NCBI RefSeq assembly: GCF_001677475.2
Contig: NZ_CP015229.1
Origin: Escherichia coli
Lineage (GTDB): Bacteria > Pseudomonadota > Gammaproteobacteria > Enterobacterales > Enterobacteriaceae
DNA length: 64,000 nucleotides
Direction: 5' to 3' (one strand)
The notes beneath the pieces were generated by a model. The model made no database searches. It was not told where the DNA came from and was given only the letters and a program-made list of their open reading frames with translations. Shown in pieces: positions 4,374 to 53,506 of the stretch (the stretch's first letter is position 1; each line of letters begins with the position of its first letter). The position numbers were made by a program, and so were the translations under genes.

Positions 4374-4552
4374 CGTTAATTCCTCGTTCAGTGATAGTTG
4401 ACGATTGAAATTATGAACGTGCAAAACAAATCGCCGTTACCAGACAAATAATGCATTTACTGGAGAATTAATCCCGCTGTACGGAAGTGTGACGCAGGTC
4501 GGCCTTGTGAGGAGGACACAAAGAAAAATTGAATTAACTGTATGATTTAAAA

Positions 4553-4582
4553 GATTATCGGGAGAATTACCTCCCGATATAA
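4553..4582 (-). terminator. Intrinsic terminator downstream of glk
   Basis: Hairpin ATCGGGAG-AATTAC-CTCCCGAT followed by a T-rich run on the minus strand, just after the glk stop. Confidence 0.6.
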
Positions 4583-4592
4583 CAGGAAGGAT

Positions 4593-5558
4593 TTACAGAA
4601 TGTGCCCTAAGGTCTGGCGTAAATGTGCACCGGAACCGAGAAGACCCGGATTGTCATGGACGATGAGATACACCGGAATATCATGGACATATTCTTTAAA
4701 GCGCCCTTTATCTTCAAATGCGGCACGGAAACCAGAGGCTTTGAAGAACTCAAGGAAGCGCGGCACGATACCGCCCGCAATAAACACGCCGCCAAATGTC
4801 CCTAGATTGAGCGCCAGATTGCCGCCAAAACGGCCCATAATGACGCAAAACAGCGACAACGCGCGGCGGCAATCGGTGCAGCTGTCAGCCAGCGCGCGTT
4901 CGGTAATATCTTTTGGCTTGAGATTTTCTGGCAGGCGGTTGTCGGCTTTAACAATTGCGCGATACAAATTCACCAGCCCAGGGCCAGAAAGCACGCGTTC
5001 CGCCGAAACATGGCCAATTTCCGCACGCAGTATTTCGAGGATAATGGCCTCTTCTTCACTATTCGGCGCAAAATCAACGTGACCGCCTTCGCCTGGCAAG
5101 CTTACCCAACGCTTATCGACATGGACCAGATGTGCAACCCCAAGCCCCGTTCCGGCACCGTAAACCGCAATAGGCTTACCTTCGACCGGTTCTGCGCCAC
5201 CAAACTGAATCAGATGCTCTTTTTTCAGCATCGGGATCGCCATCGATACAGCGGTAAAATCGTTAATAATTTCCAGATGGCTAAAACCGAGATTCTTTTT
5301 CATTTCGGCAATTGAGAACGCCCAGGTATGGTTGGTCATTGCCACCCAGTCACCGGTAATTGGGCAAGCGATGGCAATACAGCCGTCTTTCACCTCGACC
5401 TTATGTTCTTCAAGATAAACGCGAATGACCGCTTCGAGGCTGGGGTAATCAAGCCCTGAATAGGTCTTAGCCTGCGAGATTTCACCACTGGCAATATCAC
5501 ACAGAGCAAGACGTGCGTTGGTGCCGCCCACATCACCGACTAATGCATACTTTGTCAT
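4593..5558 (-). CDS. glk: Glucokinase
   Basis: 321 aa; N-terminus [21 protein letters not shown] (ROK/glucokinase ATP-binding motif). Confidence 0.97.
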
Positions 5559-5761
5559 TCTTCAACTGCTCCGCTAAAGTCAAAATAATTCTTTCTCACA
5601 CTGTAAATTCCTGGGGGCATAACAACAACGCCGGAAAGGCAGGCTCCCTGTAAATATCGATCTGGGTCACACAATTACTTTATCGTTTCAGCACCAATTG
5701 CAGCGATGCCTTTTTGCAAGCTGGGCAAACTAAGTATCTGACCCCGCATAAGGAATAGAAC

Positions 5762-7018
5762 ATGCTCCATCCGCGAGCCAGAACCATGTTGTTATTATCG
5801 CTCCCCGCCGTGGCAATTGGGATTGCGTCCAGTCTTATTCTGATTGTGGTGATGAAAATCGCCTCGGTATTACAGAATTTGCTCTGGCAACGACTGCCGG
5901 GAACTCTGGGGATAGCCCAGGATTCACCTTTCTGGATCATCGCCATATTAACGCTAACAGGTATTGCGGTGGGGTTGGTTATCCGTTTCAGCCAGGGGCA
6001 TGCTGGACCAGACCCCGCCTGTGAACCGCTGATCGGCGCACCGGTTCCGCCCTCTGCGCTACCAGGACTTATCGTAGCATTAATTCTCGGTCTTGCTGGC
6101 GGCGTCAGCCTGGGGCCGGAACATCCGATCATGACCGTCAATATCGCCCTTGCCGTCGCCATTGGCGCTCGTCTGTTACCGCGCGTCAACCGAATGGAGT
6201 GGACTATTTTAGCCTCTGCCGGAACCATCGGCGCGCTGTTTGGCACACCTGTTGCGGCGGCGTTGATATTTTCGCAAACCTTAAATGGCAGTAATGAAGT
6301 GCCGCTATGGGATCGACTCTTTGCGCCGTTAATGGCAGCGGCGGCTGGTGCGCTGACGACAAGTCTATTTTTCCACCCCCATTTTTCGCTGCCCATTGCG
6401 CATTACGGACAGATGCAGATGGCAGACATTATCAGCGGTGCGATTGTAGCGGCGATTGCCATCGCTGCGGGGATGGTCGCCGTATGGTGTCTGCCACGGT
6501 TGCACGCAATGATGCATCAGATTAAAAACCCTGTGCTTATGCTCGGGGTTGGCGGGTTTATTCTCGGTATTTTGGGGGTTATTGGTGGGCCGGTTTCACT
6601 GTTTAAAGGGCTGGATGAGATGCAGCAAATGGTGATGAATCAGGCTTTCAGCACCAGTGATTACTTTTTACTGGCGGTGATTAAGCTCGCCGCTCTGGTC
6701 ATTGCCGCCGCCAGCGGGTTTCGTGGCGGGCGAATCTTCCCGGCAGTGTTTGTTGGCGTGGCGTTAGGTTTGATGCTACATGAACACGTTCCCGCAGTCC
6801 CGGCGGCAATTACTGTCTCCTGCGCTATTCTCGGTATGGTACTGGTGGTAACGCGCGATGGCTGGTTAAGCCTGTTTATGGCGGCAGTCGTTGTACCTGA
6901 TACCAATCTGCTACCGCTACTTTGTATCGTTATGCTTCCGGCATGGCTATTGCTGGCTGGCAAACCGATGATGATTGTGAATCGCCCGAAGCAGCAACCA
7001 CCCCACGATAATCTTTAG
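5762..7018 (+). CDS. yfeO: ClC-family putative ion channel YfeO
   Basis: 418 aa polytopic membrane ORF; N-terminus [20 protein letters not shown]; AAGGA RBS. Confidence 0.9.
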
Positions 7019-7132
7019 CAAAAAATGCTCTCCATCATGATTTAAGAGTTATGGCGATGAAACGGGGCTTTACCTCCCCGTAATATTGCGTTAACAGGCC
7101 GCTGACGGCTTCGATCGTGAAGGAGAATATCA

Positions 7133-7459
7133 ATGTTCAGGTCACTGTTTCTGGCGGCCGCCCTGATGGCTTTTACCCCGCTTGCGGCAAACGCAGGTGA
7201 AATTACCCTACTGCCATCAATCAAATTACAAATTGGCGATCGCGATCATTACGGTAATTACTGGGACGGTGGTCATTGGCGCGACCGTGATTACTGGCAT
7301 CGTAATTACGAATGGCGTAAAAACCGCTGGTGGCGTCACGATAATGGCTACCACCGTGGCTGGGATAAGCGTAAAGCGTATGAGCGTGGCTATCGTGAAG
7401 GCTGGCGCGACCGTGATGATCATCGAGGGAAAGGCCGTGGACACGGACATCGTCATTAA
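7133..7459 (+). CDS. ypeC: Small secreted protein YpeC (DUF2502), W/R/H/D-rich
   Basis: 108 aa; signal peptide [21 protein letters not shown] followed by low-complexity [18 protein letters not shown]...GHGHRH; GGAG RBS. Confidence 0.85.
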
Positions 7460-7483
7460 ACACATCCACCAATGGAGCACGAT

Positions 7484-7575
<92 letters not shown>

Positions 7576-7600
7576 TGTGCCTGGTACGACGCCAGTTGAA

Positions 7601-8848
<1,248 letters not shown>

Positions 8849-12824: not shown

Positions 12825-12900
<76 letters not shown>

Positions 12901-15598: not shown

Positions 15599-15674
15599 GG
15601 GTGATTAGCTCAGCTGGGAGAGCACCTCCCTTACAAGGAGGGGGTCGGCGGTTCGATCCCGTCATCACCCACCA
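15599..15674 (+). tRNA. valU: tRNA-Val (UAC)
   Basis: GGGTGATTAGCTCAGCTGGGAGAGCACCTCCCTTACAAGGAGGGGGTCGGCGGTTCGATCCCGTCATCACCCACCA, 76 nt. Confidence 0.95.
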
Positions 15675-15718
15675 ACTACTTTATGTAGTCTCCGCCGTGT
15701 AGCAAGAAATTGAGAAGT

Positions 15719-15794
15719 GGGTGATTAGCTCAGCTGGGAGAGCACCTCCCTTACAAGGAGGGGGTCGGCGGTTCGATCCCGTCATCACCCACCA
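15719..15794 (+). tRNA. valX: tRNA-Val (UAC), second identical copy
   Basis: Identical 76-nt sequence to the first Val tRNA after a 44-nt spacer. Confidence 0.95.
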
Positions 15795-15798
15795 CTTC

Positions 15799-15874
15799 GG
15801 GTCGTTAGCTCAGTTGGTAGAGCAGTTGACTTTTAATCAATTGGTCGCAGGTTCGAATCCTGCACGACCCACCA
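15799..15874 (+). tRNA. lysV: tRNA-Lys (UUU)
   Basis: GGGTCGTTAGCTCAGTTGGTAGAGCAGTTGACTTTTAATCAATTGGTCGCAGGTTCGAATCCTGCACGACCCACCA, 4 nt after the second Val tRNA. Confidence 0.95.
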
Positions 15875-44425: not shown

Positions 44426-45295
44426 ATGAGCACTTTTAAACCACTAAAAACACTCACTTCGCGCCGCCAGGTGCTGAAAGCCGGTTTGGCTGCCCTGACG
44501 TTGTCAGGAATGTCGCAAGCCATCGCCAAAGACGAACCTTTAAAAACCAGCAACGGACACAGCAAGCCGAAAGCCAAAAAATCTGGCAGCAAACGTGTCG
44601 TTGTTCTCGATCCAGGCCACGGTGGGATCGATACCGGAGCGATCGGACGCAACGGTTCGAAAGAAAAACATGTGGTGCTGGCGATTGCTAAAAACGTCCG
44701 TTCCATTTTGCGTAATCATGGGATTGATGCGCGTTTAACGCGTTCTGGCGATACGTTTATCCCACTTTACGATCGCGTTGAAATCGCCCATAAACATGGC
44801 GCAGATCTGTTTATGTCAATTCATGCCGATGGCTTTACCAACCCGAAAGCTGCCGGTGCTTCGGTATTTGCCCTCTCTAACCGTGGGGCAAGTAGCGCAA
44901 TGGCGAAATACCTGTCTGAACGCGAAAACCGCGCCGATGAAGTTGCCGGTAAAAAGGCGACTGACAAGGATCACCTATTGCAGCAAGTGCTGTTTGATCT
45001 GGTGCAAACCGATACTATTAAAAACAGCCTGACGCTTGGCTCGCATATTCTGAAAAAGATTAAGCCGGTGCATAAACTGCACAGCCGCAACACCGAACAA
45101 GCCGCGTTTGTGGTGTTGAAATCGCCGTCGGTTCCTTCGGTGCTGGTGGAAACCTCGTTTATCACCAACCCGGAAGAAGAGCGACTGTTAGGCACGGCGG
45201 CGTTTCGTCAGAAAATCGCCACAGCGATTGCTGAAGGCGTGATCAGTTATTTCCACTGGTTCGACAACCAGAAAGCACATTCGAAAAAGCGATAA
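44426..45295 (+). CDS. amiA: N-acetylmuramoyl-L-alanine amidase AmiA
   Basis: 289 aa; Tat-type signal (SRRQVLKAGLAALTLSG), amidase_3 domain. Confidence 0.95.
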   Translation: MSTFKPLKTLTSRRQVLKAGLAALTLSGMSQAIAKDEPLKTSNGHSKPKAKKSGSKRVVVLDPGHGGIDTGAIGRNGSKEKHVVLAIAKNVRSILRNHGIDARLTRSGDTFIPLYDRVEIAHKHGADLFMSIHADGFTNPKAAGASVFALSNRGASSAMAKYLSERENRADEVAGKKATDKDHLLQQVLFDLVQTDTIKNSLTLGSHILKKIKPVHKLHSRNTEQAAFVVLKSPSVPSVLVETSFITNPEEERLLGTAAFRQKIATAIAEGVISYFHWFDNQKAHSKKR

Positions 45296-46198
<903 letters not shown>

Positions 46199-46203
46199 CT
46201 CCC

Positions 46204-47256
46204 TCACCCCCATTCCCGCATCCGCTGATGCAACGTCAACGACGGCTTCTCGGCAAACAGCTGCTGGTAATCCGTGGCAAATTGCCCCAGATGCCAGAAT
46301 CCCCACTGCATGGCGGCGTCTTTTACCGTTGTGCTTTGCGACCACGGGCTTATCAGTTCGCGGCGTACGGCATTCAGGCGAATGCGTTTCAGCCACGCGT
46401 TCGGGCCAATGCCTAAAATAGCGTGAAACGCGTTTTGTAGCGTGCGGCGACTGACATGCAGTTGATTACACAAATCCAGCACCGTCACCGGTTCGGACAT
46501 GTTTTCCAGCACATATTCACGGGCGCGGGAAAGTAATCTACGGTAACTCTGATGACTGATGCTTTCCGCCGTCACCATTGGTTGCGCTTCTTCCAGCATC
46601 GCCCCCATCGCCATTAGCAAATTATCCCCCAGCACTTTTCGCACTGCAGGCTGATGGAGATTTTCCGGGTTCTCGCAAAACGTCGCCAGCGCCTGTTGGA
46701 CAAAGCCCCACAGCGCGGCTTTATGCTGCTCTTTCACTTCCAGCGCCGACTGGCTACGCAGCATATGTAATACCCGATCCGGATTATGCAAAAAGTTAGC
46801 CTGACGGGTGATGACATCTTCAGAAAGCACTACGCCCAGGATCGTGTAATCGTCCGGCGTACTTAATTCAAACTCAGTGCCACCGGGGCGCGTCGCTATT
46901 TCTGCGCTTCCCAGACATTGCGAACCGATAAATCCCTGCTCACCGCGCGTCGCCGGAATGCCAAACCAGAACGAGTTCGGCCAGACCAGGCACGACTGAC
47001 GCAGTGCCAGACCGGTGTATTCACGAAAAACCTGAATATCATCGAGTAGAATTTCCGTAAATTCACCATGAAACTTGCCCGGATGCAGCTGATCGTAAAT
47101 CTGCTGCCAGGCGGTAATCGTTAAAGCATGTTCATAGACATCCGTTGTCTGTCGTTGATGAACATTATCCACTTCGACCTTCGGCGTGAGCTTCAGGTTT
47201 TCGGGTAAGGGTTCATGATAAAGATGGTGCAAATTGGCTGTACGGGTCTTTTTCAT
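46204..47256 (-). CDS. eutR: AraC-family activator of the eut operon
   Basis: 350 aa; C-terminal AraC HTH; stop is 5 bp from the convergent hemF stop. Confidence 0.95.

Positions 47257-53421: not shown

Positions 53422-53506
<85 letters not shown>

Follow-up and report, generated by a model that had tools for sequence, protein, structure and literature searches.

The abutting convergent hemF and eutR genes of Escherichia coli: a species-wide layout at which antisense run-on is probably limited by Rho

In the 64,000-nucleotide stretch of Escherichia coli DNA analysed here (contig NZ_CP015229.1 of assembly GCF_001677475.2; hereafter "the window"), the genes hemF and eutR converge and their stop codons are separated by only 5 bp. 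This junction is the reference, species-wide layout of E. coli, and it is already known and ordinary. It is probably an abutting convergent pair like many others, in which run-on transcription is limited by Rho, as published K-12 data indicate for the hemF strand and as we infer for the eutR strand. The locus carries little weight as a discovery: the layout is that of the reference annotation, about one fifth of the sampled convergent pairs are equally tight, and the implied read-through already appears in a published table as a Rho termination region. It may serve instead as a worked example of how Rho clears antisense run-on between abutting convergent genes that have no terminators.

The junction and its surroundings are composed as follows:

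44426..45295, + strand: amiA, directly upstream of hemF with a 3-bp gap (ORF list; NCBIfam AmiA, 579.4 bits)
45299..46198, + strand: hemF, oxygen-dependent coproporphyrinogen III oxidase, TAA stop at 46196-46198 (NCBIfam, 472.5 bits)
46199..46203, no strand: the 5-bp spacer CTCCC between the hemF and eutR stop codons
46204..47256, - strand: eutR, AraC-family activator and last gene of the eut operon, TGA stop at 46204-46206 (NCBIfam, 790 bits)

In the ORF list, the hemF and eutR reading frames encode 299 and 350 amino acids, respectively, and the NCBIfam equivalog cutoffs against which their scores are to be read are 297 bits for HemF and 319 bits for EutR. The EutK gene, also assigned by NCBIfam, lies upstream of eutR on the eutR strand. 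The eutR TGA reads "tca" on the + strand at 46204-46206, and the junction letters at 46187-46212 are "gat tgg gtg taa ctccc tca ccc cca". The two genes and the 5-bp stop-to-stop gap that had been claimed in a preliminary description of this DNA are borne out by the sequence, the ORF list, and NCBIfam.

The same 5-bp gap is annotated in RefSeq for the K-12 strain MG1655, in which hemF ends at 2554124 and eutR starts at 2554130, and for O157:H7 TR01. Between K-12 and the window, the stop codons and the spacer are identical, and the hemF-eutR region aligns ungapped with 96.9% identity. Among 5,426 complete E. coli genomes, a 1-kb probe with the junction at its centre matched contiguously in 5,393, and a 101-nt junction probe in 4,832. 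The frequency of such gaps within one genome was estimated from six 50-kb blocks of MG1655, preset at 0.1, 0.6, 1.1, 1.6, 3.1, and 4.1 Mb, in which every adjacent pair of a + strand CDS followed by a - strand CDS was counted (n = 49 convergent pairs). A gap of 5 bp or less was present in nine of these 49 pairs (18%; Wilson 95% confidence interval, about 10-31%), three of the nine being counted as true overlaps, and a gap of 10 bp or less in 12 of the 49. The nine tight pairs of the MG1655 sample are:

yadE/panD, gap 3 bp
fepE/fepC, gap -4 bp
entS/fepB, gap 3 bp
ybdL/ybdM, gap 0 bp
ybdR/yldA, gap 3 bp
yceK/msyB, gap 0 bp
tam/yneE, gap 3 bp
uspD/fpr, gap 4 bp
frwD/yijO, gap -14 bp

Because a total of 704 convergent pairs has been given for E. 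coli (bioRxiv 10.64898/2026.03.23.713779), the 18% found in the sample corresponds to the order of a hundred equally tight junctions in this species. A 5-bp convergent gap is by itself ordinary, and the earlier judgement that the arrangement is "probably benign" fits both the E. coli-wide layout and the frequency of equally tight junctions.

A consensus terminator scan found no hairpin followed by a T-run at the junction, the 200-nt junction folds on both strands were no more stable than those of shuffled sequences (z -0.85 and -0.31), and Rfam gave no match between 44000 and 48000 at E<=1. The hemF-eutR spacer also contains no REP motif of the GCCGGATG...TTATCCGGCCTAC type, and a search of the whole window gave a single unit, at 53469-53505. 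Therefore, as far as canonical elements are concerned, the description of the two genes as ending "without a terminator" stands. It should be mentioned that the lone clear REP unit of the window sits within the eut operon. The consensus scan also listed a weak + strand hairpin at 46715-46729, followed by TCTTTCACTT and adjoining the published Rho coordinate described below; we take this as a coincidence, because the MFE fold does not contain that stem and because the resolution of the Rho coordinate is only about 800 nt.

Transcription beyond the hemF stop codon is supported by data from K-12. In 2021, Adams et al. reported the Rho termination regions of MG1655, determined by DirectRNA-seq with and without bicyclomycin (PMC7815308). 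Their Supplementary file 2 contains a row that reads 2554640, +, "antisense eutR", 78, 18, 102, 106, 4.50, 8.9e-08, in which the four counts are the reads in the 800 nt on each side of the position, first upstream and then downstream, for untreated and then for bicyclomycin-treated cells (PMC7815308). The upstream and downstream counts are thus 78/18 in untreated cells and 102/106 under bicyclomycin, and the quotient (106/102)/(18/78) reproduces the Rho score of 4.5. The MG1655 coordinates were mapped to the window with an offset of 2507926, verified by the ungapped identity over hemF-eutR given above. Two features are then placed within antisense eutR:

about 46714, + strand: equivalent of the published MG1655 Rho termination region 2554640(+), 516 nt past the hemF stop; coarse, from 800-nt windows
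46540..46777, + strand: C-rich, G-poor tract inside antisense eutR, a candidate rut (Rho loading) region

Over the tract, the C:G ratio of 78-nt windows on the + strand peaks at 1.67-1.73, a moderate enrichment at the 94th-95th percentile of the window. The bicyclomycin-sensitive drop of the + strand signal inside eutR indicates that hemF-sense RNA enters eutR and is stopped there by Rho; the data are those of K-12 in LB and not of the window strain. The read-through from hemF antisense into eutR, which the preliminary description had expected, is therefore supported by the K-12 data (Rho score 4.5, p 8.9e-8), whereas the mechanism proposed there omitted Rho, which limits this read-through according to the bicyclomycin data. 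No curated Term-seq 3' ends are recorded in MG1655 2553700-2554899, an interval spanning about 400-700 nt on either side of the junction (three growth conditions; PMC7815308 tables). The SMRT-Cappable-seq supplements hold no hemF, eutR, or amiA entries.

In 2012, Peters et al. reportedly described how Rho ends read-through and antisense transcripts in E. coli. The hemF run-on is like such transcripts in that it is untranslated, lies past a stop codon, and is antisense to the neighbouring gene; the C-rich, G-poor tract, the bicyclomycin-sensitive drop, and the lack of a discrete Term-seq peak are further points of likeness. Moreover, the locus itself stands in the published table, in which antisense positions form the largest class of Rho termination regions (51.5%; PMC7815308), and on the hemF side we find no difference from this class. 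In other words, the hemF-eutR locus is a routine case of Rho-limited antisense run-on. Mechanistically, RNA polymerase transcribing hemF would pass the TAA codon, where the ribosomes are expected to be released according to established knowledge; the RNA beyond it, no longer translated and antisense to the 3' half of eutR, would then expose the C-rich, G-poor stretch seen in the sequence, and Rho would end the run-on a few hundred nucleotides inside eutR, as the published K-12 bicyclomycin data suggest.

The statement in the preliminary description that there is no intervening hairpin is literally correct for the 5 bp between the stop codons; what it overlooked is a stem-loop that straddles the gap:

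46185..46217, no strand: imperfect inverted repeat of 33 nt, centred on the spacer and made up of the 3' ends of both coding sequences

The repeat pairs through 12 bp on the eutR strand, in blocks of 4 bp (GGGA/UCCC, UGGG/CCCA, and GUGA/UUAC), and through 10 bp on the hemF strand. In the GUGA/UUAC block, the stop codons of hemF and eutR are paired together, and the 5-bp spacer forms the loop. Folded on its own, 46185-46217 has an MFE of -12.0 kcal/mol (hemF strand) and -15.2 kcal/mol (eutR strand); equally stable 33-nt windows make up 3.3% (+ strand) and 0.6% (- strand) of those in the 64 kb, and 0.4% of mononucleotide shuffles are as stable (p=0.004). The same small stem-loop also appears in both of the 200-nt junction folds. 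The stem-loop exists because both proteins end alike, HemF in ...R-D-W-V and EutR in ...R-E-W-G.

Like an intrinsic terminator, this is a G+C-containing stem-loop at the 3' end of hemF and eutR. Unlike one, it is broken by two 1x1 internal loops, was missed by the consensus scan, and has no discrete 3' end mapped to it, although low expression could hide one. In addition, the stem is not followed by a U-tract, the next bases being GCAUCCGC on the + strand and UGACCUUA on the - strand. Because the U-tract is missing on both strands, the junction stem-loop does not qualify as an intrinsic terminator. Although no canonical terminator, this short structure, made up of the final codons of the two genes, may cause a pause or hinder 3'-exonucleases.

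The relatives of E. coli have filled the same position differently. In an EutR scan with one genome per species (63 loci), the convergent arrangement of hemF and eutR was found in Escherichia, in about 20 Citrobacter species, in the Klebsiella oxytoca group, and in Salmonella enterica subsp. arizonae, as well as in Pseudocitrobacter, a Pluralibacter MAG, and Intestinirhabdus. In Yokenella, Buttiauxella, Hafnia, Morganella, Brenneria, Dickeya, Pectobacterium, and Lonsdalea, no hemF lay within 4 kb of eutR. Because EutR has 350 amino acids (a few loci being slightly off) and HemF about 299 throughout, it is the spacer that differs between the groups, and the stop codons have not moved. By group, the spacer measures:

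Escherichia: 5 bp
Pluralibacter MAG: 8 bp
Intestinirhabdus: 19 bp
Citrobacter, Klebsiella, Salmonella arizonae, and Pseudocitrobacter: 54-150 bp, and 425-973 bp in a few cases

REP-type palindromes make up the long spacers, with units of the kind searched for in the window and GTAGGCC...CATCAGGC units (MFE -20 to -70 kcal/mol). REPs occupy the hemF-eutR spacer in about 25 related species, and the same REP family is represented in the window by the unit at 53469-53505. REPs between convergent genes have been described as combined terminators and decay blocks that go with higher expression of both neighbours, and REP/BIME elements are found at about 30% of the 704 E. coli convergent pairs (bioRxiv 10.64898/2026.03.23.713779). 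The hemF-eutR spacers of the sister genera, with one to several REP-type units each, thus represent the same niche, whereas the spacer in the window is only 5 bp long and has no REP. That REP palindromes are kept here in the sister genera suggests that some 3'-end element is useful at this junction. In Escherichia whittamii and E. coli 2017-02-2CC, related islands of 1.8 and 3.8 kb lie at the junction instead. Two apparent variants were set aside: a 190-bp gap in MOD1-EC7003 is an artefact of a premature eutR stop, the true junction being 5 bp, and the ATAAA junction variant had no match among E. coli genomes and therefore belongs to another Escherichia species.

Within the genus Escherichia, four lineages have kept the 5-bp length of the spacer, with the eutR-strand 5-mers GGGAG, ATAAA, and GGTAA, and all four have kept the stem-loop despite differing arms and spacers:

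K-12: eutR strand -15.2, hemF strand -11.3 kcal/mol
E1V33: eutR strand -12.9, hemF strand -12.6 kcal/mol
MOD1-EC7003: eutR strand -17.5, hemF strand -16.5 kcal/mol
SCPM-O-B-8794: eutR strand -9.2, hemF strand -9.0 kcal/mol

A stem-loop that is stabler than expected and kept in four lineages is unexplained by a model in which nothing at all is present at the junction. The strongest competitor of the preferred reading, which we nevertheless regard as improbable, is that the coding-embedded repeat is a functional bidirectional 3'-end element, namely a pause or collision site or a 3'-exonuclease block, which replaces the role of the REPs. The rank of its stability on both strands, its exact centring on the gap, and its retention in the four lineages are in favour of such a role, as is the presence of REPs, described as dual terminators and decay blocks, in this spacer in related species. 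On the other hand, the single-site significance of the repeat is modest, the version in the SCPM lineage is weak (-9 kcal/mol), and the repeat is largely forced by the proteins. The HemF C-terminal RDWV is conserved across all genera compared, so that part of the inverted repeat is dictated by the protein, and Trp stands at position -2 of both proteins in E. coli and in other genera; in the three other Escherichia lineages, EutR residue -2 is Leu instead of Trp. Also in favour of a functional element is the codon of the hemF Arg, which is encoded by AGG, a rare Arg codon in E. coli, in Escherichia and by CGN in the REP-bearing Citrobacter, Klebsiella, and Salmonella arizonae; AGG gives the outer GGGA/UCCC stem. 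The correlation between AGG and the lack of a REP is imperfect, however, because Pseudocitrobacter has both AGG and a REP.

Other tight junctions provide a further comparison. By stability, the 41-nt junction windows of hemF/eutR fall in the top 6.1% and 1.4%, whereas none of 12 other tight K-12 junctions (gap <=10 bp) is in the top 10% on both strands, and hemF/eutR is more structured than all 12. A general rule that tight junctions all carry coding-embedded hairpins is thus ruled out in this sample; tight junctions as a rule lack hairpins, and hemF/eutR, if anything, departs from this. In 2019, Ju et al. reportedly described overlapping bidirectional terminators that depend on the collision of RNA polymerases. 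The hemF-eutR junction is similar to them in that the region which both transcripts of the convergent pair would share holds a non-canonical stem-loop and no U-tract, and in a published model (Wang et al., bioRxiv 10.1101/2022.10.23.513370) bidirectional terminators between convergent genes require a hairpin where the transcripts overlap and look unlike intrinsic terminators. However, this class is Rho-independent (bioRxiv 10.1101/2022.10.23.513370), whereas the hemF-strand signal is Rho-sensitive, and the well-defined overlapping 3' ends of the class have no Term-seq counterpart at the hemF-eutR junction: no curated 3' end is recorded at the expected MG1655 position (~25541xx) under three growth conditions, and + strand coverage runs on and drops in a Rho-dependent manner about 0.5 kb further. 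The missing 3' end and the downstream Rho-dependent signal together argue against the stem-loop as the main terminator, although it may end a part of the transcripts. For specialists, the point of interest is that the same junction holds a REP in Citrobacter, Klebsiella, and Salmonella arizonae and a coding-embedded stem-loop in Escherichia.

The published Rho region is coarse, and this is an objection to the reading that we prefer, an ordinary pair with Rho-limited run-on: the reads could stem from an unmapped antisense promoter rather than from hemF. The + strand RNA inside eutR would then be initiated by an independent promoter within eutR, and the hemF transcripts would end near their stop codon. 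E. coli has many intragenic antisense promoters, and the 800-nt upstream window of the Rho score covers the end of hemF together with 516 nt of antisense eutR, so that the reads may come from either. We nevertheless consider this unlikely, and more so than a functional stem-loop, because the consensus scan found no sigma-70-like site on the + strand from the hemF stop to the Rho coordinate (46199-46714), because neither the scan nor the folds revealed a terminator that could end the hemF transcripts, and because the curated Term-seq tables list no 3' end at the hemF stop.

A regulatory use of the overlap, an idea raised in the preliminary description as possible antisense interference, is less probable still. 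It would mean that hemF, when induced by H2O2 through OxyR, lowers basal EutR through collision with the polymerase coming from the P2 promoter or through an RNA duplex, while an induced eut operon dampens hemF, so that oxidative stress and ethanolamine are coupled. Some of the ingredients are real: + strand RNA antisense to eutR exists in K-12, OxyR induces hemF (PMC9576991), and eutR is transcribed from an inducible P1 and a weak constitutive P2 promoter, its basal expression depending on the latter and on positive feedback and hence being sensitive to small changes (PMC5821096). Against it, a literature search on hemF with ethanolamine or the eut operon returned nothing relevant on cross-regulation, the antisense RNA is curtailed by Rho, the relatives have REP spacers or islands at the junction and give no sign of a conserved overlap, and tight convergent junctions are generic (9/49).

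The overlap does touch a part of eutR that specialists may wish to note, since the 3' region of this virulence-relevant regulator is a point of post-transcriptional control. The sRNA MavR binds the 3' coding region of eutR and protects the transcript from RNase E (PMC8565329). The control of eutR by MavR and RNase E and the hemF run-on thus involve the same 3' coding region of the eutR mRNA; MavR, however, is a trans-encoded sRNA with demonstrated binding, whereas the hemF run-on would be a cis-antisense by-product. A bolder combination of these elements, which we likewise hold to be very improbable, is that Escherichia has replaced the REP by a coding palindrome (the last 4-5 codons and both stops, with the rare AGG) as a minimal pause or decay block, and that hemF run-on raised by OxyR tunes basal EutR through the MavR/RNase E region. 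If this were true, the palindrome and the run-on together would connect oxidative stress with the sensing of ethanolamine and, in EHEC, with the regulation of virulence.

We return to the preferred reading, an ordinary abutting pair held in check by Rho, for the opposite direction. A lacZ transcriptional reporter of the eut operon in E. coli 536 was inserted in the eutR-hemF intergenic region, right after the eutR stop (PMC10710832), which presupposes transcription passing that stop. Native transcripts from eut P1 and P2 would continue beyond the eutR TGA and become antisense to hemF, and we infer eutR-sense read-through into hemF on this basis; it would presumably also be ended by Rho and/or by polymerase collision. 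In K-12, the eut operon, which is split by the CPZ-55 prophage in this strain, is uninduced in LB. Most likely, the antisense overlap of the two genes amounts to noise that the cell tolerates and Rho holds down, as would be expected at other tight junctions, because hemF and eutR are presumably both weakly expressed under most conditions. The strongest candidate for Rho loading on this strand is the following:

45383..45460, - strand: strongest C-rich, G-poor tract on the eutR strand after the eutR stop by C:G ratio, a candidate rut site

The C:G ratio is unremarkable before this tract, which lies about 750-820 nt into antisense hemF; within it, antisense to the Gly-rich codons of hemF, the ratio reaches 2.84, the 99.9th percentile.

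In the published table of Rho termination regions of MG1655 with and without bicyclomycin (Supplementary file 2 of Adams et al. 2021; PMC7815308), a region antisense to eutB is listed at 2558053 (+), with 523/24 reads in untreated cells versus 371/399 with bicyclomycin, a Rho score of 23 and p 3e-86; it is far stronger than the eutR-antisense region in the same table. These read counts imply an abundant antisense transcript within the eut operon. The region corresponds to window position ~50127 (+), a coordinate that presumes collinearity with K-12. On the other strand, the following tract is antisense to a Gly-rich segment close to the N-terminus of hemF; judged from its sequence, it is a candidate site at which Rho could load onto any transcript that reads through from eut:

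45383-45460, minus strand (eutR-sense): extreme C-over-G tract (35 C, 12 G; 99.9th percentile)

The eut operon of the window is contiguous, without a CPZ-55-type interruption, and it contains a single REP-type element in the 116-bp gap between ORFs of 395 and 408 aa:

53469-53505, minus strand: near-consensus REP unit, GCCGGATGCGACGCATGTCGCGTTTTATCCGGCCTTC (1 mismatch; 0 expected by chance)

By their order and size, the two flanking ORFs are eutG and eutH, which places the REP unit within the eut operon, in the sense orientation; there it might serve for internal attenuation or stabilisation.

At the hemF-eutR junction itself, the outer stem of the imperfect hairpin receives a contribution from the AGG codon at 46184-46186, which encodes the fourth-from-last residue of HemF (Arg). 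AGG is a rare codon in E. coli. It occupies this position in Escherichia, and also in a Pluralibacter MAG and in Pseudocitrobacter; CGC or CGT is found there in Citrobacter, Klebsiella, and Salmonella arizonae. On the opposite side of the junction, the 3' end of eutR seems to be disrupted or altered in some genomes: at locus L038 (Escherichia sp. MOD1-EC7003), a premature stop occurs ~190 nt ahead of the usual one, and the EutR proteins of loci L030 and L040 have different C-termini.

In a few Escherichia genomes, the 5 bp between hemF and eutR are replaced by an island:

4500-8359 of locus L002 (E. coli 2017-02-2CC, NZ_AP027764.1): 3.8-kb junction island
5060-6843 of locus L007 (E. whittamii): 1.8-kb junction island

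The larger island encodes a DUF1963 protein, a hypothetical protein, a Tli3-family T6SS immunity protein, and SEL1-like and TPR proteins. An AT-rich hemF-proximal end is common to both islands, and in E. whittamii a REP-like hairpin directly follows eutR.

Several public assemblies are doubtful. One "Citrobacter sp." MAG contains both an E. coli-type contig, with the 5-bp junction and an EutR 100% identical to that of the window, and a Citrobacter-type contig with a 54-bp REP spacer (loci L004 and L036); because both types are present, this bin is probably mixed. Fragments of ~400 bp that resemble E. coli eutR, located in assemblies labelled Bacillus hominis and Prolixibacteraceae (loci L060-L062), are probably contamination.

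Against 5,426 complete E. coli genomes, the best identity of each third of the window was 97.6-97.7%, and a 1-kb junction probe reached up to 99.5%, with its best match in O157:H7. At least 80% of window 1-24000 was found in one place in only 84 of these genomes. The window comes from an Escherichia or Shigella-type lineage that is somewhat divergent, and the region is possibly mosaic. The window also carries ordinary E. coli tRNA loci close to gltX:

12825-12900, minus strand: tRNA-Ala(GGC)
15599-15874, plus strand: tRNA-Val(TAC)-Val(TAC)-Lys(TTT) cluster
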